64,000 bases of DNA from Acidobacteriota bacterium (GTDB lineage Bacteria > Acidobacteriota > UBA6911): assembly GCA_963664705.1 (NCBI GenBank), contig OY761556.1, positions 2,020,795 through 2,084,794 of the forward strand. Reading direction: 5' to 3'. A program made the translations under genes and the position numbers. The notes beneath the pieces are model-generated. The model was not told where the DNA came from. It searched no databases and saw nothing but the letters and a program-made list of their open reading frames with translations. Below, piece by piece: positions 3,243 through 47,290 of the stretch (position 1 is the stretch's first letter; every line of letters begins with the position of its first letter).

Positions 3243-5321
3243 ATGGAAAAATCAGAGCTCGTTATTGAGTTGGGCGTGGAGGAAATCCCGGCCTCGATGA
3301 TCGAGGACGCCTCGCGTCAGTTTACGGATTTGATTCTGGAGTCGCTAAAAGCGCAGCGGCTTGCCTGCGGAGAGGTGACTCGGTGGTATACTCCGCGGCG
3401 CGTCATCCTGGGAATTCAGGATGTTCCCGTGCGCCAGGAAGATCTCGTGGAAGAGATTACAGGGCCACCCAAGAGCGTCGCCTATGACAATGCCGGCAAT
3501 CCCACGAAAGCCGCGATGGCTTTTGCACAAAAAAACAGCGTCCCCCTTTCGAAACTGAAAATCGTTCAGACACCCAAAGGCGAATACATTTCCATCCAGC
3601 GGAAAGTCCGCGGAGAGAAGACGGCAAAACTGCTGGAACGTCTGATCCCGGCCGCAATCGGAAAAATTCAGTTTCCCAAGACCATGCATTGGAGCCCGGA
3701 TCACTTCCGCTTTGCGCGCCCATTGCGCTGGATCGTAGCCTTGTTTGCCGGCAAAACCGTCCGGTTTACCATTGCCGATGTCGCTGCATCGAACTATACC
3801 TCCGGACACCGTTTTCTTGGAAAGCCCAGAATTGCGGTTACCTCGCTCTCCACATTGAAAGAAAATTTGCGCGCAAATTCTGTCATGGTCGATCCGGTGG
3901 AACGACTGGCCAAAATTCAGGAAGGACTGCTGCGGGAGGCAGAGGCCTGCGGCGGCACATTGCTGGCAGATCCCGATCTGCTGAGCACCGTTGTGAATTT
4001 GAATGAAGCGCCGTCCATCGTTCGCGGCAATTTCGAAGAGCGCTTCCTGGCACTGCCCAAGGAAATCCTCATCACGGTCATGCGGGAACATCAGAAATAT
4101 TTCTGTGTTCTTAATGCGGAGGGACAGCTTCTTCCCGTTTTTCTTGCCGTGGTCAATATCGAATCCGACCGGGACCGGATCATCCAAACAGGTCACGAAC
4201 GCGTCCTGCGTGCAAGGCTCGCGGATGCCGCTTTCTTCTGGGATACCGACCGCAAGACCCGGTTGGCCGACCGCGAAGAGGCACTGAAACATGTACTGTT
4301 CCAACTGAAGTTGGGATCTTATTTTGACAAAACGCAGCGCGTACTTTCATTACTCCCGAAGGTAGCGAACGCCCTGGGCAAGCCTGATCTGATTCCCGAT
4401 CTGGAGACGGCCTCGCATTTCTTCAAATGCGATCTCATCACGGAAATGGTGAAGGAATTCACCGACTTGCAGGGCGTAGTCGGTGGACTGTATGCACGCG
4501 CGGAAGGCTATCCGGAATCGGTCTGGCGTGCCGTATACGAACAGTACGAACCCAAATCCACCAATTCACCCTCTCCCGGTTCCATCACCGGCGCTATTCT
4601 CGCGCTTGTGGATCGCCTGGATACCGTATGTGGCTGCTTCAGCATCGGCCTGATTCCTTCCGGATCGGGAGATCCGTTCGCAGTTCGTCGACAGGGCAAC
4701 GGCATTCTCAAAATTGTTTTCGATCATCGTTTGAGCATTTCTCTCCAAGATATGATTCAATGGAGTCTCCATGCTCATGGAAAAGACGTTTCTCAGGTAA
4801 TCGACAGCCTGAAGGAATTTTTCGAGGGTCGACTACGCTTCCTGTTTGAAGAAATGGGCTATGCCTATGACTGCGTCAATGCAGCATTGGCCGCCGGTTT
4901 TGATGATCCATTGGATGTATTGGAACGGCTGCGCGCACTTCAGGAACTCAGGCAGGAAGCTGACTTCCTGTCGCTGGCATCCAATTTTAAGCGCATCGTA
5001 AACATACTGTCTCAGGCAGGAAATGAAACGGGCACTCTGGATGAGTCCAAGCTTCAGGATCCGGCGGAGATGGCTTTGTGGAAGAGCTACCTCCAGGTTC
5101 AGCCGGAAGTGGAGGCGGCCAGAAGAAATCATGACTATGGCGCGGCTCTGCGATCGCTTGCATCCATGCGCCAAGTCGTGGATGAATTCTTTAAGCAAGT
5201 CATGGTGATGGCCGAGGATCCGGCGCTTCGCCAAAACCGGATATCGCTTCTGTTTAGGGTTTCACAGATTTTCAGGAGTATCGCGGATATTTCCAGGATT
5301 GTCATCGAACGAGGCGCCTGA
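3243..5321 (+). CDS. glyS: glycine--tRNA ligase beta subunit
   Basis: 692-aa ORF with a GlyS N-terminus (LVIELGVEEIPASM...) and the canonical glyQS gene order. Confidence 0.95.
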   Translation: MEKSELVIELGVEEIPASMIEDASRQFTDLILESLKAQRLACGEVTRWYTPRRVILGIQDVPVRQEDLVEEITGPPKSVAYDNAGNPTKAAMAFAQKNSVPLSKLKIVQTPKGEYISIQRKVRGEKTAKLLERLIPAAIGKIQFPKTMHWSPDHFRFARPLRWIVALFAGKTVRFTIADVAASNYTSGHRFLGKPRIAVTSLSTLKENLRANSVMVDPVERLAKIQEGLLREAEACGGTLLADPDLLSTVVNLNEAPSIVRGNFEERFLALPKEILITVMREHQKYFCVLNAEGQLLPVFLAVVNIESDRDRIIQTGHERVLRARLADAAFFWDTDRKTRLADREEALKHVLFQLKLGSYFDKTQRVLSLLPKVANALGKPDLIPDLETASHFFKCDLITEMVKEFTDLQGVVGGLYARAEGYPESVWRAVYEQYEPKSTNSPSPGSITGAILALVDRLDTVCGCFSIGLIPSGSGDPFAVRRQGNGILKIVFDHRLSISLQDMIQWSLHAHGKDVSQVIDSLKEFFEGRLRFLFEEMGYAYDCVNAALAAGFDDPLDVLERLRALQELRQEADFLSLASNFKRIVNILSQAGNETGTLDESKLQDPAEMALWKSYLQVQPEVEAARRNHDYGAALRSLASMRQVVDEFFKQVMVMAEDPALRQNRISLLFRVSQIFRSIADISRIVIERGA

Positions 5322-5522
5322 TATAAAATCCGTGCTACGGAAAGAATACTCTTTGAGATTGTTTGAGCTCTTTGCCCGATTGCAAGAGCTTCAATAATTT
5401 CAAAGAGGCTTTGGTTTTGGGAGAGCCTGGATCCAATGAACCGACTTCTCCCGGAATGCAATCAAACCAGGTGGCAGACCAGGTCGTTTTTTGGCCGGCT
5501 ATCCATATTGAGGAATTAAAAA

Positions 5523-6839
5523 ATGATCGCCAAAGGAAAAGAAATTGCGCCCGCAACAGGCAAATTGGGCGTAGTACTTCCCGGAATGGGCGCAATCAGC
5601 TCTACATTCATAGCGGGAGTGGAGGCAGTTAAAAAGGGAATCGCCAAGCCGATCGGCTCGTTGACACAAATGGGAACTATCCGTTTGGGGAAGCGCACGG
5701 AAGGGCGCATTCCCAAGATTAAGGATTTCGTTCCGCTGGCATCTCTCGACGACCTGGTATTCGGCGGTTGGGACATTTTCTCTGATAACATCTACCAGGC
5801 CGGATTACACGCCGGTGTGCTGGAACGCAGCCTTTTGGATCAGGTGCGGCCCGAAATGGAGGCGATTAGCCCGTGGACCGCTGCTTTCGACAAAAACTAT
5901 GTCCGGAAGCTCGATGGCACCCATGTAAAAAAGGGCGCCAATAAAATGGAATTAGCGGAACAGCTGCAGGATGATATCAAGGCGTTCAAAAAGAAGAACA
6001 ACCTCAGCCGCATGGTCATGGTCTGGTGCGCCAGCACTGAAGTCTTCCTAAAGCCTTCTGCCGTACACCAAACCGTGGAGAGCTTCGAAGAAGGTTTGCG
6101 GAAGAATGATCCGGATATCGCCCCAAGCATGCTTTATGCCTACGCCGCCATCAAATCCGGAATCGCTTATGCCAACGGCGCGCCCAACCTTTCGGCCGAT
6201 ATTCCGGCGCTGAATCGCCTCGCGAAAGATCACAACATTCCGATTTGCGGAAAGGACTTTAAGACCGGACAGACTTTGATGAAAACCATCCTGGCCCCCG
6301 GATTGAAGTCGAGACTCATCGGACTGAGCGGCTGGTTCTCCACCAACATCCTCGGCAACCGTGACGGTGAAGTGCTGGACGATCCGGATGCTTTCAAGAC
6401 CAAAGAGGAAAGCAAGCTGTCGGTCCTGGAACACATCCTTCAACCGGATCTCTATCCGGACCTTTATTCGAATTATACTCACAAGGTGAGGATCAATTAC
6501 TATCCTCCGCGCGGCGACAACAAAGAAGGCTGGGATAACATCGACATCTTTGGCTGGCTCGGATACCCAATGCAGATCAAGGTCGATTTCCTCTGCCGCG
6601 ATTCCATCCTGGCAGCCCCAATCGTTCTGGATCTCGTGATGTTCCTCGATCTGGCGCAGCGCTGCGGCATGAGCGGCATCCAGGAGTGGCTCTCCTTCTA
6701 CTTCAAGAGCCCGATGTGCGCTCCAGAGCTTTATCCTGAACACGACCTGTTCATTCAGCTGATGAAGCTTAAAAATACGCTTCGCTACCTGCAAGGCGAA
6801 GATCTGATCACGCACCTCGGCCTGGAGTATTACGACTAG
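5523..6839 (+). CDS. ino1: inositol-3-phosphate synthase (myo-inositol-1-phosphate synthase)
   Basis: 438 aa with an N-terminal Rossmann region (GKLGVVLPGMGAISSTFIAGVEAVKKG). Overall it resembles bacterial/archaeal MIPS as I recall the family. Confidence 0.8.
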   Translation: MIAKGKEIAPATGKLGVVLPGMGAISSTFIAGVEAVKKGIAKPIGSLTQMGTIRLGKRTEGRIPKIKDFVPLASLDDLVFGGWDIFSDNIYQAGLHAGVLERSLLDQVRPEMEAISPWTAAFDKNYVRKLDGTHVKKGANKMELAEQLQDDIKAFKKKNNLSRMVMVWCASTEVFLKPSAVHQTVESFEEGLRKNDPDIAPSMLYAYAAIKSGIAYANGAPNLSADIPALNRLAKDHNIPICGKDFKTGQTLMKTILAPGLKSRLIGLSGWFSTNILGNRDGEVLDDPDAFKTKEESKLSVLEHILQPDLYPDLYSNYTHKVRINYYPPRGDNKEGWDNIDIFGWLGYPMQIKVDFLCRDSILAAPIVLDLVMFLDLAQRCGMSGIQEWLSFYFKSPMCAPELYPEHDLFIQLMKLKNTLRYLQGEDLITHLGLEYYD

Positions 6840-25973: not shown

Positions 25974-27026
25974 GTGTCAAAGGATTCCAAGCAAAAAAGA
26001 CTGACCGAGTGCAGCAGTGCCGGTGGTTGAGCCAGCAAAATGAGTCCGGCGGTGCTGGACAAAGTTTTATCAAAGCTTCCACGCCAGGAGGACCCGCGTC
26101 TGCTGGTGGGCTTTGGAAAAAAGGATGATGCCGGAGTTTATCTTCTTCATGATGGACTCGCCCTGGTACAGACAACCGATTTCTTCACCCCTATCATCGA
26201 CGATCCTTATCAGTACGGACAGATAGCCGCCGCCAATTCCCTTTCCGATGTCTATGCCATGGGGGGGCGTCCCATTACTGCCCTCTCCATAGTCTGTTAT
26301 CCCGAAGACGGCGATCTCGAGATGCTCGAGCAAATCCTGGTCGGCGGCATGGACAAGATGATTGAAGCCGGCTGCACGGTAGTCGGCGGCCACATGGTGC
26401 GCGACGCCGAAGTTAAATTCGGCTACGCCGTCACCGGCACCGTTGATCCCAAGAACGTATGGACCAATGCCGGCTCTCATCCGGGGGATGTGCTGCTTTT
26501 AACCAAACCTCTCGGCACTGGAGTGATCGCGACTGCTATTCGCGCCGGGAAATCCGAACCTGAATGGACCCAGGCTGCCATAGATGTAATGCGCCAACTG
26601 AATAAGGACGCGGCCATTGCTCTCGACGCGGTGAAGGATTCCATCCATGCGGTCACCGATATAACGGGATTCGGCTTCATCGGCCACACTCTCGAAATGG
26701 CGACCGGAAGCGAAGTCAGCATTCGCATCGAAAGCGGCAGCATCAGGCTGATTCCAGGAGCGATGGAGTGCGTGCGGCTGGGGTGCATCGCCGGCGGACT
26801 GAAAAAGAACCGCGCTTTTGTCGGCGCCGATGTGCAGTTCGCGGACGGAGTTTCTCCGGAATTGCAGCAACTGCTGTTCGATCCGCAGACATCCGGCGGA
26901 CTGCTGATCTCCATTCAGCCGGAAGCGGCGGAAGAAGCTTCCCGGTTGCTGGAAGCCGCCGGCTGCCAGGCCATGCGCATTGGCACCGCCATCGAAAAGA
27001 TGGCTTTTCCCGTCCTGGTCATCTGA
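25974..27026 (+). CDS. selD: selenide, water dikinase SelD, selenocysteine-containing (UGA 26028-26030 decoded as Sec)
   Basis: The ORF track starts at ATG 26040, but the frame stays open upstream to 25905 apart from one TGA. Read-through gives VSKDSKQKRLTECSSAGG-U-ASKMSPAVLDKVL. This aligns with E. coli SelD [24 protein letters not shown], placing U on the catalytic Cys17 and conserving Lys20. The rest is clearly SelD (TTDFFTPIIDDPY..GGRP..; C-terminal DPQTSGGLL). GTG 25974 is the best start; TTG 25968 is the alternative. Confidence 0.85.
26028..26030 (+). other. in-frame UGA (selenocysteine codon) of selD
   Basis: This is the only stop codon between 25905 and the selD body, and it aligns to the catalytic Cys/Sec position of SelD. 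Confidence 0.8.
26037..26067 (+). promoter_or_regulatory. candidate bacterial SECIS hairpin for selD
   Basis: Apical stem GUCCG (26044-26048) / UGGAC (26056-26060, one G-U pair) with loop GCGGUGC. The lower stem extends as AAA(26037-39)/UUU(26065-67) across an internal loop. It starts 13 nt after the UGA. Folded by eye only. Confidence 0.5.
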
Positions 27027-27139: not shown

Positions 27140-27859
27140 CTAAAAGCGGTATTTGGCCTTCTTGACATCCTGGCGGAAATCCGGCCCCTGAATTTCTACC
27201 TCCCGACACATCTCAAACAATCGCGAACGAAGACGCATGCCTATTCGGTCCGTCAAATTCTCCTCCCCCTGTTTGACAGGCTTGTCGAGGTAATTGGAGG
27301 TAAAAATAGTCAGCTTCTCGTCGTTATAGCGACAGTTGATGATGTGCGCAATGGTGTCCCGCACCCAGTCCGTCGGCTTGTTGGCTCCCAGTTCATCCAG
27401 GATCAGTACCTTCGCCTCCAGTACAGGCCGCAGCACCTCCAATTCCGAGGTTTGAGAAACGGAATTCCAGCTGGCCTGAATCTCGCGAAGTAGATCCCTG
27501 AAATCATAGAAGAGCCCGCCATCCCCCTTTTCCATGATCACCTGCTTCAGCAGGGCAACCGCAAGATGTGTCTTGCCGACGCCGCAAGTCCCAAGCAGAA
27601 GCAGCCCCACATCGATCTGGGGATATTTATCCAGGAATCGCTGGACGTAGAGCTTTGCCTTCTTTTGAGATTCATTTTGCGGCAGGTATGATTCCAGATC
27701 GCAATGCTCATACCGCTTCGGGATGCGTGCTTCGGCCAGAAGCCTCTCGACCCGGACCGAGCTCATGCAGGTACATCGGCGTACACCCCCTTCCACCGGT
27801 TCCCATCCGGAACCGCTGCAAAGAGGACAAGCTGGGAGTAATGAATTTTCAGTGGTCAT
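27140..27859 (-). CDS. DnaC/IstB-like AAA+ ATPase (putative helicase loader) with an N-terminal Cys4 zinc ribbon
   Basis: N-terminal CPLCSGSGW...RRCTC, Walker [15 protein letters not shown], Walker B VLILDELG and sensor-1 TSN. No IstA-type transposase is adjacent. Confidence 0.75.
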
Positions 27860-40959: not shown

Positions 40960-41733
40960 TTGTTTTCAGAACAGTTTGGGTTTCGGCAGCATGCGCTCGT
41001 TAACTTCGTGGGGGGTGGAGGAAAAACCGCTTTAATTCATAAGCTGATGGAGGAGTATTGTTCCTGCGGGCCCGTGCTTTGCACGACCACTACCAGGATC
41101 CATCCGCCCGATCCCAGCGAAGGCCTGGTTGTGATCTCCAGCGATAATCTTCAGCTGCTCACCACAATGGTGGACAAGGTCAGCCGGAACTGCACGAGTC
41201 GTTCGTACAAGCTCGTGGTTACCCGGCACTTTATGACTCCGAATTTATTGAGGGGTGTTCCGCCCGACTTCGACAACTCTCTTTCCCGAGATCTGTTTCC
41301 CATCCTTTTGAATGAGGCCGACGGAGCCGCAAGTTTTTCCATCAAGATTCCACGCGAAGGCGAGCCGGTTTTGATGGAGAATGCGCAGTACCTCGTGCCC
41401 GTAATCGGAATCGACTGCCTCTACCAGCCGCTCGGTCCGGAAGTCGTCTTCAGATTCCAGTCCCCCATGGCGGAACAACTCTCGCTGCAACCGGGCGAAC
41501 GGATTACTCCGGATGTTGCGGCGCGCATCCTTATGCACCCAGAGGGCGTCTGCAAATACTGGAAACCCGGAATGACCATCATTCCTTTCATTAACAAGGT
41601 GGATGGTCCAGCGCAGGATTCCTCCGCACATGATCTTGCCGCCTCCATACTTAAGAACGGAAATTTCCCCGTTCAGCGCGTTGTATACGGCAGCGTGCTC
41701 CAGGGAAGAGTCGATTCCTTTTCGCCCGCATAG
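40960..41733 (+). CDS. YqeC-like P-loop protein (putative selenium-cofactor biosynthesis accessory protein)
   Basis: 257 aa with an N-terminal P-loop NFVGGGGKTALI, an ..LLNEADGAAS.. motif and ..FINKVDG.. (NKxD-like). As I recall it, this matches the YqeC family (TIGR03172). TTG start with GGGAG 6 nt upstream. Confidence 0.5.
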   Translation: MFSEQFGFRQHALVNFVGGGGKTALIHKLMEEYCSCGPVLCTTTTRIHPPDPSEGLVVISSDNLQLLTTMVDKVSRNCTSRSYKLVVTRHFMTPNLLRGVPPDFDNSLSRDLFPILLNEADGAASFSIKIPREGEPVLMENAQYLVPVIGIDCLYQPLGPEVVFRFQSPMAEQLSLQPGERITPDVAARILMHPEGVCKYWKPGMTIIPFINKVDGPAQDSSAHDLAASILKNGNFPVQRVVYGSVLQGRVDSFSPA

Positions 41734-42554: not shown

Positions 42555-43888
42555 ACAAATCGCTTTTCCCTGAATCGGATGAGCCGTCCGTAACGCCCGA
42601 TGCCCCGCTGGCAGAGCGTCTTCGCCCGAGAACACTCGATGAGATCGTTGGCCAGCAACATCTGATCGGAGAAGGAAAGGTTCTGCGTGCGATGGTGGAG
42701 CAGAACCAGTTGACATCGATCATTCTTTGGGGACCTCCAGGCACCGGCAAAACCACGCTCGCCCGCATCATGGCAAAGCAGACACACTCTCCGTTTGTTT
42801 TCTACAGCGCAGTGCTTTCGGGCATTAAAGAGATCAAGACCGTTATGGCGGAGGCGGAATCCCACTCACGCAGAAATCTGGGAAGAACCGTTGTGTTTGT
42901 CGATGAAATTCATCGCTTCAACAAAGCTCAGCAGGATGCATTTTTGCCTTATGTGGAATCAGGCGTCATCCTATTGATCGGTGCCACGACCGAAAACCCA
43001 TCCTTCGAAGTAATCAGCCCGCTGCTCTCCCGGTGCAAGGTTTACGTGCTCAACCCGCTTCAGCCCTCGGAAATTGTTGAAATATTGAAGCGTGCCCTTA
43101 CCGACGAAGCGCGCGGCCTTGGCAGTGTTTCGATCTCCGTATCCGACGAAGTGCTGCAACAGCTCGCCATCTTTGCCAATGGAGACGCTCGCATTGCCCT
43201 GAACATATTTGAGCTGGCCATTTCACTGAAGAGCGGGAAAAAGTCGGGAGAAGCGCTGGTATTGAATACGGCCGATCTGGAATCCGCACTCCAGCGGAAG
43301 ATCCTGCAATACGATAAATCCGGCGAGGAGCATTACAACCTTATCTCCGCCCTTCACAAATCCATGCGCAACAGTGATGCCAATGCCGCCCTATATTGGC
43401 TCGGACGAATGCTGGAGGCCGGCGAGGATCCGGTGTATATCGCCCGCCGCATGGTTCGCTTTGCCTCTGAAGATGTCGGATTGGCCGATGTCCGTGCTCT
43501 GAGCGTTGCCTTGGACGCCACGGAAGCGGTACGGCTGATAGGCCTTCCGGAATGCAAACTGGCGCTGGCGCAGGCTGCTGTTTATCTATCGGTGGCACCC
43601 AAGTCGAATGCTCTGTATACCGCCTATTCGAGCGTGGCTTCTGACGTACAAAGGACTTTTAATGAACCTCCGCCTTTACAAATCCGCAATGCGCCCACTA
43701 AGCTCATGGAAGAATTGGGCTATGGCAAGGGCTATCAGTATGCCCATGACCTAAAAGAAAAAGTGGCGGACATGGAGTGTCTGCCCGATTCTCTTCGCGG
43801 CCGGCAGTACTACCATCCCTCAGACCAAGGAATGGAACGGCGCATCCGGGAAATCCTCGCCGAAATCAAGCAGCGCAAAAGCCATTAA
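42551..43888 (+). CDS. rarA: replication-associated recombination protein A
   Basis: Walker A GPPGTGKTTLA, Walker B VFVDEIHRFNK, and a MgsA C-terminal domain (..ISALHKSMRNSDANAALYWLGRML..). Confidence 0.95.
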   Translation: MNKSLFPESDEPSVTPDAPLAERLRPRTLDEIVGQQHLIGEGKVLRAMVEQNQLTSIILWGPPGTGKTTLARIMAKQTHSPFVFYSAVLSGIKEIKTVMAEAESHSRRNLGRTVVFVDEIHRFNKAQQDAFLPYVESGVILLIGATTENPSFEVISPLLSRCKVYVLNPLQPSEIVEILKRALTDEARGLGSVSISVSDEVLQQLAIFANGDARIALNIFELAISLKSGKKSGEALVLNTADLESALQRKILQYDKSGEEHYNLISALHKSMRNSDANAALYWLGRMLEAGEDPVYIARRMVRFASEDVGLADVRALSVALDATEAVRLIGLPECKLALAQAAVYLSVAPKSNALYTAYSSVASDVQRTFNEPPPLQIRNAPTKLMEELGYGKGYQYAHDLKEKVADMECLPDSLRGRQYYHPSDQGMERRIREILAEIKQRKSH

Positions 43889-43914
43889 CGCCAAGGGGAA
43901 TCCCGCCGTGACAC

Positions 43915-44018
43915 CTAATGCCTCATACTATTTGTCGAGGGCGAGGCCCTTCGGATTGCGGTGGCTTGCCCCCGCCTTCGGCTACTGTAATTATCAAAGG
44001 CGTCAGTAAGCTGCCGGA
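43915..44018 (+). repeat. structured intergenic repeat, copy A (full length)
   Basis: CTAATGCCTCATACTATTTGTCGAGGGCGAGGCCCTTCGGA...CCGCCTTCGGC...AAAGGCG...GCCGG aligns along ~100 nt with 57235-57337. Its first ~50 nt also align with 46041-46090. It contains a conserved hairpin CGCCTT/AAGGCG. Confidence 0.6.
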
Positions 44019-44130
44019 CTCCATGGCGAGCCTCTTCGCAAATGATATACGGCATTGGGCGGGACGCGTCCTCATTGTCGGTACACGGTTTTTTGACATT
44101 TGCTTGTTGTAAATGCGACTGGAAGGTGGT

Positions 44131-44139
44131 TGATATAAA
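44131..44139 (+). promoter_or_regulatory. candidate extended -10 promoter element for the selenoprotein gene
   Basis: TGaTATAAA (TGn + TATAAA) lies ~29 nt upstream of ATG 44168. No convincing -35 was found. Sequence match only. Confidence 0.3.
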
Positions 44140-44167
44140 TCAAACCATTTGCCCAAGAGAGGAACCA

Positions 44168-45943
44168 ATGAACTGCAAAGCGTTCTTTTTCGCGCCTTTT
44201 CTCCTCCCGTTCCTGTTTGCCGCATCTGCGGCGGCGCAAGATGCAAAAATCACCGCAATGAATCCGAGAGGCATTCTTCCTCTCATACGCAGGATACCGA
44301 TGGCCCCGCGGCCAGCAACGCTGGATGGCAAGGTTATTTATCTGGTCGATTCAAGGTATCCGCGCACCCGGGAATTTGTTGAAGAACTGCATAAGGTGCT
44401 CCAGGAACAATATCCGAAAACCACCTGGGTCCTTAGGGACAAGTTCGGAGGCTATGTCGATGATGATCCAAAGCTGTGGGCCGAAATCAAGGAGAAGGGG
44501 CATGGAATGATTATGGCCCTTGGCCATTGAAGCACCTGCTCGCCGTCGGTCGTCGGCCATTGTGTGACAGCAGAGAGCTTGGGAATTCCAACAGTGCCAA
44601 TCATTACTCAAAGGTTTCGCGAACTTGTGACCGCCATCGCCTTCAAAAAGGGAATTCCGAGCATGCGGATGGTCTACACACCGCATCCGGTCACAGACCG
44701 GCCGGCGGCGATGTGCCGGAAATACCTGCAGGGCAATGACCCGGTTACAGGCAAGCCGATCCTGCAGGAGATCGTGGAAGGGTTGATGAAACCTGTCTCG
44801 AACGAAGATAAATCGACCGGCTTTCTCCCTCGACCGCCCCGTGTCCGGTTGCTGCCTCCGGACACCGCCGAAAACCTGGACAATTACTTCTATGATAATA
44901 ACCTGACGGACGGGCTTCCGATCGTACTTCCTACGGAAAAGAAGGTAGCTGAGATGCTGAAAGCGACCAGCCGCAAGCCTGACGAGATTGTCGGCAAAAT
45001 GGCCGCTTCCACTCCACACGAAGCGTGGGAGTATACCGTTGAAATGGTTGCCGTCAATGCCGTGATGTCGGGAGCAAAGCCGGAATACTTCCCTGCAATT
45101 CTCGCCCTGGCCTCAACCGGTCAGACTGCCTTGGTCAGTTCCACATCCTCCTATGCAAGAATGGCATTGTTCAATGGGCCCATCGTGCAGGAAATGGGCA
45201 TGAATTCAGGTGTCGGCGCCATGGGACCTTTTAGCCGAGCCAACGCCACCATCGGCAGGTGCTGGACATTGATGTCCAAGAATATTGGAGGGTCGGGCAA
45301 AATCGGTGAAACCTACATGGGGACTCAAGGGAGCAACCTCAATTATAACAACCTCTGCTTTCCGGAAACCGAAGACGCTTTGCCTCCCGGGTGGAATCCA
45401 TTTCACGTGCAGAAAGGACACAAGCGGTCCGAAAGCGTGGTGAGTGTTTTTGGCGGTTGGAGCCTCAGCGATATCTGCTGGTATACGCCCACGCCCATCT
45501 ATCAGGTCATCCGTGGATGGCTGGAGCATTTCTTCTCCACCAGCGTAACCGGAGCCACACTTATCCTGGATCCGATGGTCGCCGCCGATGTAGCCTCCGC
45601 CGGGTTCAAATCCAAGGAGGACTATGCCGATTACCTGATAAGGAATACCGGAACGCCAGCCTGGCTTTATTGGCAAACCCGGCAGGCAGAGCTGGAACAA
45701 GCTCGGAAAGGCGTAGAGCCTTTTGCTACCTATTTGAAGGCTGGCGAAAACGGGGTAATCCCCCTATCGCGTTTTACGGGAAAGCTGGTCTTGGGTGTGC
45801 CGGTGAATGCATTCGCGTTCGGTACTCTGGCCTCAGACCGCACGCCGATCGAGATCATCGTAACTGGAGGAGGAACCAACACCTATTGGGCTGGCGGCGA
45901 TTTTATGTATTCGGGCAGCGCTTCGATCGACCATTGGAGATAG
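44168..45943 (+). CDS. predicted secreted selenoprotein: UGSC-like U-x-x-C domain fused to an uncharacterised ~400-aa domain (UGA 44528-44530 decoded as Sec)
   Basis: ORF-track entries 44042..44530 and 44564..45943 share a frame and are separated only by TGA plus 11 sense codons. Read-through gives ..GHGMIMALGH-U-STCSPSVVGHCVTAESLGIPTVPIITQRF.. ATG 44168 has GAGG 5 nt upstream and encodes a Sec-type signal peptide (MNCKAFFFAPFLLPFLFAASAAA/QD). The downstream entry has only a GTG with no SD. Confidence 0.65.
44528..44530 (+). other. in-frame UGA (candidate selenocysteine codon)
   Basis: Single stop between two same-frame ORFs. It creates a U-S-T-C (UxxC) motif. Confidence 0.6.
44536..44573 (+). 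promoter_or_regulatory. candidate bacterial SECIS hairpin
   Basis: Apical stem GCCG (44542-44545) / CGGC (44554-44557) with loop UCGGUCGU (contains GGUC), 11 nt after the UGA. A possible outer stem is CUGCU (44536-40) / AGCAG (44569-73). Folded by eye only. Confidence 0.4.
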
Positions 45944-46040
45944 GTGAAGCAACGAGAATGAAACTGTAGCCCGCTTGACCGCCAGCATCTTACGGGCAAG
46001 AGCACAGCTGGCTCTATCGCAGCCGTTGCCGCCGGGACGG

Positions 46041-46090
46041 CTAATGCCGCATACCATTTGTCGAGTACGATGCACTTCGGACGGCGGCGC
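46041..46090 (+). repeat. structured intergenic repeat, copy B (5' half only)
   Basis: CTAATGCCGCATACCATTTGTCGAGTACGATGCACTTCGGA matches copy A at about 35 of the first 41 positions (by-eye alignment). It ends at the rocD stop codon and is flanked by the inverted GCCGCCG (46029-35) / CGGCGGC (46082-88). Confidence 0.55.
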
Positions 46091-47290
46091 CTAGCTCATC
46101 AGAACCGGTTCAATGCGCTCGAGGGCCCAATTGATTTCATCTTTCGTGATGACCAGCGGCGGCGCAAACCGAACGGTGTTTTCATGCGTTTCCTTGCAGA
46201 GCAGTCCCTTCGACATCAGCATTTCACAGAACCGTCTGGCCCCGCCGGACTCGGGATGCAATTCAACGCCGATCAATAATCCTTTCCCGCGCACATCCTT
46301 AATATGCGGACTCCTGATGCGCCTTAACTCATTCTGGAAATAATCTCCCATGGCAGCGGCGTTTTCGATCATCCCCTCTTCCACTAGAACCTTCAGCGCC
46401 GTTCGCGCGATGGCACAGGCAAGCGGATTTCCTCCGAATGTGCTGCCATGCTCTCCTGGCCGCAGCACTCCCAGGACTTCCACATTCGATAATACCGCCG
46501 AGATAGGATAAAAGCCTCCAGACAAGGCTTTGCCGATAATGGTCAGATCGGCCTCAATTCCATCGTATTCTTCAGCCAGCAGACGCCCCGTTCTCCCCAG
46601 CCCGGTCTGGATTTCATCCAGAATAAAAACCACATGGTTCTTCTCACAAATCGCCTTGGCTCGAGACAGGAATCCCGCCGGGGGCACGATGACGCCGGCC
46701 TCCCCCTGTATAGGTTCGACCAGGAAGCCAACTGTGTTTGGCGTGATCGCCTTCTCAAGAGCCTCCGCATCGCCAAAAGGAATTACGGTGAATCCGGGTG
46801 TAAACGGACCGAAGTTTTCCCGATAGTATTCATCCGTACTGAAACTCACGATGGTAATTGTGCGGCCATGAAAATTATTGGCACAGACAATGATCTCCGC
46901 CTTGTGGCGGGGGACCCCCTTTACCTGATATCCCCATTTCCGAACGGCTTTGATAACCGTTTCGACAGCCTCCGCGCCGCTATTCATCGGCAACACCTTG
47001 TGGGAATGGGTCAGATCGCATATTTCCCTGTAAAACAAACCCAACTGATCATTTCGAAACGCGCGTGAAGTCAACGTCAGCTTCCGCGCCTGCTCCTCCA
47101 TGGTTTTCAGTATTCTGGGATGACAGTGTCCCTGGTTGACCGCCGAATAGGAGGACAGGCAATCGAGGTATCGATTCCCATCCACATCCCATACCCAGAC
47201 GCCTTGCCCCCTGGCAAGAACAACATCCAAAGGCTTGTAATTGTGCGCGCCGTATTCTTCCTCGAGGCGGATAAACTCCGTGCTGTCCAT
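46091..47290 (-). CDS. rocD: ornithine--oxo-acid aminotransferase
   Basis: Class-III PLP aminotransferase whose N-terminus is typical of OAT ([49 protein letters not shown]). I moved the start to ATG 47290, which has AGGAGG upstream. Confidence 0.85.

Follow-up and report, generated by a model that had tools for sequence, protein, structure and literature searches.

Within a stretch of 64,000 nucleotides of Acidobacteriota DNA (contig OY761556.1, positions 2,020,795 to 2,084,794; hereafter the window), positions 44168..45943 of the forward strand are, on the comparative sequence evidence, one gene, in which two apparent open reading frames (ORFs) are joined by a UGA codon that encodes selenocysteine (Sec). 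We think that the product is an exported protein of two domains, an N-terminal UGSC domain that carries Sec in a U-x-x-C motif and a C-terminal domain (hereafter the C-domain) without a family match, and that the two operate as a redox module. Taken as a whole, this seems to us the probable reading, and its firmest part is the recoding itself, since alignment with relatives leaves us in very little doubt that UGA 44528-30 is read as Sec.

The frame can be followed by eye. ORFs 44042..44530 and 44564..45943 share a common frame, and between them lie only TGA 44528-30 and 11 sense codons. The single coding sequence (forward strand) comprises 591 codons, with Sec at codon 121 and a TAG stop at 45941-43, and read-through at the TGA gives ..KEKGHGMIMALGH-U-STCSPSVVGHCVTAESLGIPTVPII.. 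(including ..MIMALGH-U-), that is, a U-S-T-C motif. The start at ATG 44168 is preceded by a Shine-Dalgarno-like GAGAGG at 44157..44162 on the same strand, with a 5-nt spacer, and it is with this ATG, not the upstream ATG 44042, that the N-termini of homologues line up; inspection of the sequence upstream of GTG 44564 found no Shine-Dalgarno site comparable to that of ATG 44168. Relatives are colinear with the joined product: one genomic copy matches by tblastn over residues 1-591 at 88% identity, and P0087, a full-length Cys homologue of 597 aa, reads MIMAIGH-C-STC.

The strongest evidence for recoding (U121, codon 44528..44530 on the forward strand) comes from how the relatives treat this one column. 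Searching 5.8 billion proteins gave 4102 relatives, and 119 of the best 120 were N-terminally truncated proteins of 424-459 aa that begin right after the UGA, the pattern that gene callers leave when they take a Sec codon for a stop. Indeed, these matches are truncated gene calls, and none reflects a genuine termination at the UGA. In the 31 genome loci that were examined, mostly from Acidobacteriota metagenome-assembled genomes (MAGs), with some of Desulfobacterota type (Desulfatiglans, Desulfobacterales and Thermodesulfobacteriota MAGs) and some from Dehalococcoidales, 32 gene copies carry TGA at exactly the same column, with coding sequence kept on both flanks. The codon alignment has TGA at the Sec column in 29/29 homologous genes, the frames being intact on either side and the flanks conserved (LWAEIKEKGHGMIM..GH*S[ST]C..G[IV]P), and the 11 codons between the TGA and GTG 44564 are conserved at the protein level in all homologues. 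Such a column (29/29 genes; 32 Sec sites) is far beyond chance. Where the codon does change, it changes to Cys: two tandem paralogues at one locus (L001) have TGC at the Sec column and read GHCSTC and GHCGGC, and P0134, P0146, P0147, P0155, P0232 and P0233 have Cys there too, as does the full-length P0087, these Cys homologues being rarer than those bearing TGA. Reassignment of UGA is ruled out, because TGA serves as the ordinary stop of 17 of the 42 long ORFs in the window.

In addition, the organism very probably decodes Sec, since the window's own selenophosphate synthetase gene, selD (25974..27026, forward strand, start codon approximate), has an in-frame UGA at 26028-30. Its product, with AIRS and AIRS_C domains, matches E. 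coli SelD by tblastn at 40% identity, the TGA aligning with Cys17, and a hairpin with a GGU apical loop lies downstream of this UGA as well. Stop-to-stop annotation of selD covers only the part from 26040 onwards.

The putative selenocysteine insertion sequence (SECIS) of the fused gene is a hairpin at 44542..44557 on the forward strand, beginning 11 nt past the UGA, with 4 base pairs, a U.U mismatch, 1 further pair and a GGUC loop at 44548-51. Counting the U of the UGA as position 1, the pairs are G15-C30, C16-G29, C17-G28, G18-C27 and C20-G25, around loop positions 21-24 and the mismatched U19/U26. In an alignment of 30 homologous Sec genes, 88% of cells pair, and 2 of the 30 sequences show one compensatory change, from G-C to A-U, that involves two third-codon positions. 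Codon usage speaks more loudly: codons +5 to +9 (P-S-V-x-G) each use essentially one codon, with a normalised synonymous entropy of 0-0.24 against 0.79 +/- 0.19 across the gene, and the window adjoining the UGA has the lowest synonymous entropy of 370 sliding windows. When the same peptide is recoded synonymously, 2.7% of the recodings yield an equally stable hairpin and 0.6% also retain the GGU loop. We regard a SECIS as supported by these comparisons, with thin covariation. In its layout the hairpin matches the minimal fdhF SECIS of E. coli, with the 11-nt spacer and the GGUC loop, and the fdhF sequence folds accordingly. Both start 11 nt past the UGA, place a GGUC apical loop some 18-21 nt downstream and leave a stem U unpaired, whereas the stem in the window is shorter (5 canonical pairs) and a U.U mismatch replaces the bulge.

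Much of this had been anticipated in an earlier note made from the letters of the window alone, which described two in-frame ORFs split by a TGA and 11 sense codons, a start at ATG 44168 with a Shine-Dalgarno site 5 nt upstream and a GTG without one, a U-x-x-C motif on read-through, a hairpin with a GGUC loop 11 nt after the UGA, a SelD that is itself recoded, and a gene that stop-to-stop annotation would miss. Direct reading and the database matches agree with it on all of these points, and the checks that it suggested have in essence borne out its interpretation.

Scored against profiles with the TGA read as Cys, the window protein falls within the UGSC family. Pfam PF24696, an alpha/beta redox domain, matches residues 41-183 (44288..44716, forward strand) with E 2.9e-26 and 93.1 bits against a cut-off of 25, covering model positions 13-155 of 172, and NCBIfam NF041046 matches residues 54-180 with E 1.6e-19 and 70.4 bits, under its 125-bit equivalog cut-off. 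Both matches cross residue 121, so a single domain spans the Sec residue. It is in this sense that the description 'UGSC-like' in the earlier note holds, since both profiles span the UGA; its literal U-G-S-C does not, the motif being U-S-T-C and the score about 70 bits against the 125 of the equivalog model. U-G-S-C in a stand-alone protein of ~150 aa is thus not the case in the window, where a protein of 591 aa has U-S-T-C and a fused C-domain; PGAP does name a 560-aa fused Cys form a 'UGSC family (seleno)protein'. Cys124 (44537..44539, forward strand), which is invariant in all Sec and CxxC homologues, is the candidate resolving Cys of the motif.

To see how such a domain might be built, we can turn to structural models of the Cys homologue P0087 at full length and of the window's own C-domain. 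The AlphaFold2 (AF2) model of P0087 has a mean predicted local distance difference test score (pLDDT) of 89.7 and a predicted template modelling score (pTM) of 0.88; its N-domain is made of beta-alpha units, with the Cys where a strand ends and a helix starts. Its only matches in the PDB are generic Rossmann-like or flavodoxin-like folds, found via the N-domain with template modelling (TM) scores <0.2 relative to the query. The Sec domain has no match among the thioredoxin-family hidden Markov models (HMMs) of Pfam and NCBIfam, and its modelled fold is a beta-alpha-beta repeat and not thioredoxin. The window protein likewise gives no HMM match to GrdB/PrdB (PF07355, TIGR04483). P0087 meets TIGR04483 at E 0.098, and hhalign gives a probability of 36% with the Sec columns aligned; of the two sequences compared, one passes PF07355. 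Together these comparisons suggest that the UGSC domain may be distantly related to the Sec region of GrdB/PrdB.

The C-domain (residues ~232-591; 44861..45940, forward strand) is the more enigmatic half. The earlier note could place its C-terminal ~400 aa in no characterised family, and this stands, for a domain of ~360 aa: neither the window protein nor diverse relatives match any Pfam or NCBIfam model in this region, and a sequence search of the PDB found nothing, a 70-sequence profile with E allowed up to 10 faring no better. The family is large, with 3492 clusters at 50% identity (E up to 1e-3), and has motifs (TDGLPxxxPT, AVNAVM[AS]G within VExVAxNAVMAG, NGP, ANATIGR and ENE/ETE..W) whose conserved residues are polar or structural. 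A Foldseek search of the PDB with the confident AF2 model of the window C-domain (pLDDT 91.5, pTM 0.89) yielded no neighbour; its top hit has E 0.078, probability 0.09 and TM 0.17. Toblerone-fold, fumarate hydratase and PurM-like proteins were considered as C-domain folds and rejected, the resemblances being weak, with TM ~0.2 or below.

What the two domains do for one another is best approached through the company that they keep. C-domains occur in five arrangements: fused to a UGSC domain that has Sec, CxxC or neither redox residue; fused to a Redoxin/ResA-like CxxC domain of thioredoxin fold that replaces the UGSC domain (P0249, P0265, P0291); alone, at ~345 aa (P0239, P0261, P0234); as a tandem duplication (P0207, P0210, P0227); and encoded separately, next to a gene for a stand-alone UGSC protein. 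The last of these is seen at locus L034/L035, where a stand-alone UGSC Sec gene (..ITGLGD-U-GSC.., with 138.3 bits to NF041046, above the cut-off of 125) lies immediately upstream of a C-domain gene whose product shares 35% identity with the window C-domain (E 2e-36), alongside a second C-domain gene and an ATP-binding cassette (ABC) system of Opp/Dpp type. The same order, UGSC then C-domain, recurs on the P0284 contig (where the UGSC gene is UGA-split) with NMT1-type binding proteins and a Pyr_redox_2 gene, and at L040 with CoA-transferases. In a related layout, found on Tara Oceans contigs, the gene after a Redoxin-C-domain fusion encodes a stand-alone U-G-S-C protein, and at L042 it is a Sec gene. 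UGSC and C-domain are thus fused in some genomes and adjacent genes in others, a classic sign that they probably work together. Cytoplasmic CxxC fusions, for their part, adjoin genes of the thioredoxin reductase (TrxR) family, with TIGR01292 as best match at 231-373 bits: at L041, in Pseudonocardia, a TrxR gene is followed by an Opp-like ABC system, SBP_bac_5, the fusion and lastly a TrxR-like gene, at L045 a TrxR-like gene with a CASCDG motif begins 9 nt after the fusion, and L046 and L047 are similar. This gene order suggests that the U/CxxC motif may be recharged by a TrxR-like reductase.

The N-terminus of the window protein has the pattern of a signal peptide of the Sec (secretory) type, as the earlier note had supposed in calling it cleavable. 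By eye and by hydrophobicity scan, residues encoded at 44168..44236 on the forward strand, MNCKAFFFAPFLLPFLFAASAAA/QD, show a basic n-region, a hydrophobic core and a c-region with an A-x-A site before QD. An equivalent segment, ending in ..SPA/QE.., is conserved in nearly all of the acidobacterial and Desulfobacterota-type copies (~25 genes). In a subclade made up of both L001 copies, L018 and L030, the segment is Tat-like (NRR[KT][LI]LSLLG), and L018 and L030 contain Sec; if that motif is genuine, these proteins would be exported in an already folded state. Some relatives have a lipobox-like LAAC. The Dehalococcoidales copies L013 and L027 lack the N-terminal segment and begin at the mature part. 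Considering this pattern of conservation, export of the window protein seems likely to us.

How might such a protein work? The hairpin at 44542-44557 would recruit SelB and Sec-tRNA(Sec) at UGA 44528, and the 591-aa precursor would then be directed across the inner membrane by its N-terminal signal peptide. The mature protein would consist of two domains that, to go by the models, are tightly packed. At the strand-to-helix junction, U121-S-T-C124 would cycle between a selenol/thiol and a selenenylsulfide, with U121 as nucleophile and C124 as the resolving residue, while a pocket of conserved polar residues in the C-domain (D, T, N, R, E, W) might be the substrate-binding or catalytic part. The gene would then be the fused form of a two-component module that is encoded elsewhere by adjacent genes, as a stand-alone UGSC protein and a C-domain protein, and electrons would presumably flow in the reductive direction, from a reductant to the U/CxxC of the UGSC domain and on to a small molecule that the C-domain holds as its substrate.

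Several observations weigh against this reading. On the RNA side, the covariation in the hairpin is thin, a single compensatory pair in 2 of 30 sequences, and the hairpin of the single sequence is not more stable than its dinucleotide shuffles (z +0.59 over 63 nt, -1.12 over 22 nt). The single-sequence fold is thus insignificant, and the case for a SECIS rests on the comparative data. Rfam found no SECIS or other RNA family, either in a gathering-threshold scan of the whole window or in a permissive scan of 43700-46300. ORF scans of the 64-kb window found no selA or selB, and no tRNA-Sec was found in it, nor indeed any tRNA at all. None of the loci examined for the exported acidobacterial genes has a reductase or a transporter as neighbour. 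On the protein side, fused relatives exist without both redox residues (GHMDTL in P0121, GQSSTV in P0136, and P0123, P0133, P0164, P0183 and others), a divergent copy at L024 reads GQLDTC at the Sec site, and the C-domain has no invariant Cys. With so many fused members lacking the redox residues, the C-domain is not universally dependent on the UxxC motif.

It is the last group of observations that gives the best of the rival explanations its substance, namely that the UxxC is not a redox relay at all and instead binds a metal or metalloid or carries sulfur or selenium, or that the N-domain chiefly gives structural support to a C-domain whose work involves no redox chemistry. A sizeable fraction of the fused relatives keep the N-domain without its Cys/Sec positions, the C-domain also occurs alone or tandem-duplicated, and it lacks an invariant Cys. 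Against this, the alternative N-terminal partner is a CxxC domain of thioredoxin fold (ResA/Redoxin-like), TrxR-like genes recur next to the CxxC forms, and the motif around the Sec is similar to that of GrdB/PrdB. We think this explanation unlikely, and yet on the specific claim that the UxxC serves the C-domain as a redox relay we find ourselves evenly divided.

A second possibility, which we think distinctly unlikely, is that the gene encodes a genuine selenoprotein whose N-terminal segment is an uncleaved anchor or no export signal, leaving the protein membrane-tethered or cytoplasmic. In its favour, L013, L027 and many distant relatives are cytoplasmic proteins that do without the segment and have TrxR partners in the cytoplasm; on the other side stand the n-h-c layout with its A-x-A or SPA/QE site, conserved over ~25 genes, the RRxLLSLLG Tat-like subclade and the lipobox-like LAAC of some relatives, and even an anchor, being a short basic N-terminus with one hydrophobic helix, would still put the bulk of the protein outside. 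Scarcely credible, finally, is the idea of two separate genes or a pseudogene, in which the TGA is a true stop after a ~120-aa product and the rest starts at GTG 44564 or ATG 44663 or is dead: gene callers do annotate the homologues as split, and the hairpin energy is unremarkable on a single sequence, but the 11 codons from TGA to GTG are conserved as protein in every homologue, one Pfam domain crosses the stop, the Cys homologues are continuous, the TGA keeps an identical column in 29/29 genes with both frames intact, and GTG 44564 has no Shine-Dalgarno site.

A single Sec-encoding gene for an exported UGSC-C-domain protein thus remains our preferred reading, and on it we would tentatively build a broader proposal. 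UGSC and C-domain may form a widespread, uncharacterised thiol- or selenol-dependent enzyme system whose catalytic fold has no solved relative; its cytoplasmic forms would be fed by TrxR-like reductases and receive substrate from adjacent ABC importers, and Acidobacteriota and Desulfobacterota would have moved the Sec fusion to the periplasm and expanded it to multiple copies. This we hold as a possibility, somewhat short of an expectation.

The surroundings of the gene offer further observations. It stands alone in the window between rarA and a convergent aminotransferase gene. Genes that recur beside its acidobacterial relatives (short-chain dehydrogenase/reductase, exported methyltransferase, AOR and NuoF-like genes) were dropped as functional clues, since they look like synteny shared among relatives. 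At a distance of 2.4 kb upstream of the UGSC gene is a member of the YqeC family (40960-41733, forward strand; PF19842, E 4e-29). YqeC is associated with the selenium-dependent molybdenum hydroxylase cofactor trait, and if that link holds, the window would have three genes connected with selenium. Directly downstream of selD, on the reverse strand (27140-27859), is a gene for an IstB-like ATPase, an IS21-family helper protein, which hints at a mobile element nearby. The selenoprotein gene is itself bracketed by a 67-nt direct repeat of 79% identity (43903-43969 and 46029-46095), the core of which, CTAATGCCNCATACNATTTGTCGAG, occurs only at these two sites in the window, with 0 occurrences expected by chance. 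The copies have self-complementary ends (CCGCCG...CGGCGG), no Rfam family matches the repeat, and neither the related loci nor a pattern scan of metagenomes yielded a further copy. An intergenic repeat, a small RNA and the boundary of a cassette are the candidates for what it may be.

Among the relatives, too, there are features that deserve mention in their own right. Several Sec paralogues per MAG are found in related Acidobacteriota (L004, L005/L006 on contig CAWEJX010000012.1, L009, L033 and L001/L002, of which L001 has the two tandem Cys paralogues); one related contig has three gene copies within ~17 kb, and the MAG SRP192927_co7_741 has at least four. A copy in a MAG labelled Gammaproteobacteria (L029, ~4001-5712) is frameshifted, yet retains the TGA and the SECIS sequence; either the gene is a pseudogene or the long-read assembly is in error. 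At L044 (2571-12102), genes for two glycyl-radical enzymes and a radical-SAM activase are interspersed with two UGSC-C-domain fusions that have no redox Cys, namely P0121 and a 582-aa paralogue, and the non-redox branch of the family may have a different functional setting here.

Why should this matter? The gene provides a concrete handle on the function of an orphan selenoprotein family, and it exposes a systematic error of annotation, by which this gene and thousands of others of its kind are split into a short ORF and an N-terminally truncated 'hypothetical protein'. It also supplies testable leads: a partner domain that is obligate, whether fused or adjacent; a likely electron donor in the TrxR-like flavoproteins beside the cytoplasmic CxxC forms; and a likely class of substrate, namely whatever is taken up by the Opp/Dpp-type or NMT1-type ABC systems. 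WP_358488424.1, a cytoplasmic Cys homologue from a cultured Pseudonocardia, is experimentally tractable. In addition, a probable periplasmic selenoenzyme is added to the Acidobacteriota, a phylum with little-studied selenium biology, and, if the proposal of an enzyme system is true, a very abundant orphan selenoprotein family of aquatic metagenomes would gain both a function and a context.

How does all of this compare with what is already established? UGSC-containing proteins are an abundant and functionally orphan selenoprotein family, named in the Sargasso and Global Ocean Sampling (GOS) selenoproteomes (PMC2398784, PMC1976440, PMC13188914), and since ~2005-2008 they have figured as one of the commonest selenoprotein families of environmental metagenomes (PMC2398784, PMC13188914). 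The window protein shares with them the alpha/beta domain, Sec as the first residue of UxxC followed by ..E..G-[IV]-P-[TS]-V, and a predominance of Sec forms that far outnumber Cys forms. Classic family members, however, stand alone, have ~150-180 aa and a literal U-G-S-C, and pass the equivalog cut-off, whereas the window protein has U-S-T-C, 70 bits, a signal peptide and a C-domain of ~360 aa. A fusion has also been reported: Fig. S1A of Zhang & Gladyshev 2008 includes a 'UGSC/Unknown_1 fusion', Unknown_1 also being a separate protein (PMC2398784). The likeness is plain, in that a UGSC selenoprotein is fused to a conserved domain that exists separately in some organisms, and Unknown_1 may plausibly be the window-type C-domain. 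The difference is that the GOS sequences came from marine reads and were described without an export signal, partner reductase or gene adjacency (PMC2398784).

Two further systems invite comparison. In GrdB/PrdB/GrdA, as in the arrangement proposed here, a small Sec component acts with a substrate-specific one and has its reducing power restored by a thioredoxin reductase system whose genes lie close by, and the local motif around Sec is alike (strand, U-x-x-C, helix, E-x-G-I-P-T-V). However, the similarity of the window protein to GrdB/PrdB is no more than suggestive (hhalign 36%, E 0.098), there is no pyruvoyl partner like GrdE or PrdA, and HMMs show no relationship between the C-domain and the subunits of Grd or Prd. 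The exported DsbA-like, DsbG-like and thiol:disulfide interchange selenoproteins (PMC1976440, PMC13188914) resemble the window protein in having a redox motif (UxxC/CxxU) and a predicted extracytoplasmic location, but its Sec domain does not adopt a thioredoxin-like fold and has a large non-redox domain joined to it. The window gene is therefore of a known kind, given that the UGSC family is established and a fusion was reported in 2008, and is an unannotated further member of it. Where it goes beyond the UGSC papers that were searched is in the context of a partner domain and TrxR-like genes, in a C-domain without any solved structural relative, in conserved export signals of Sec type or Tat-like form, and in the multi-copy expansion in Acidobacteriota.

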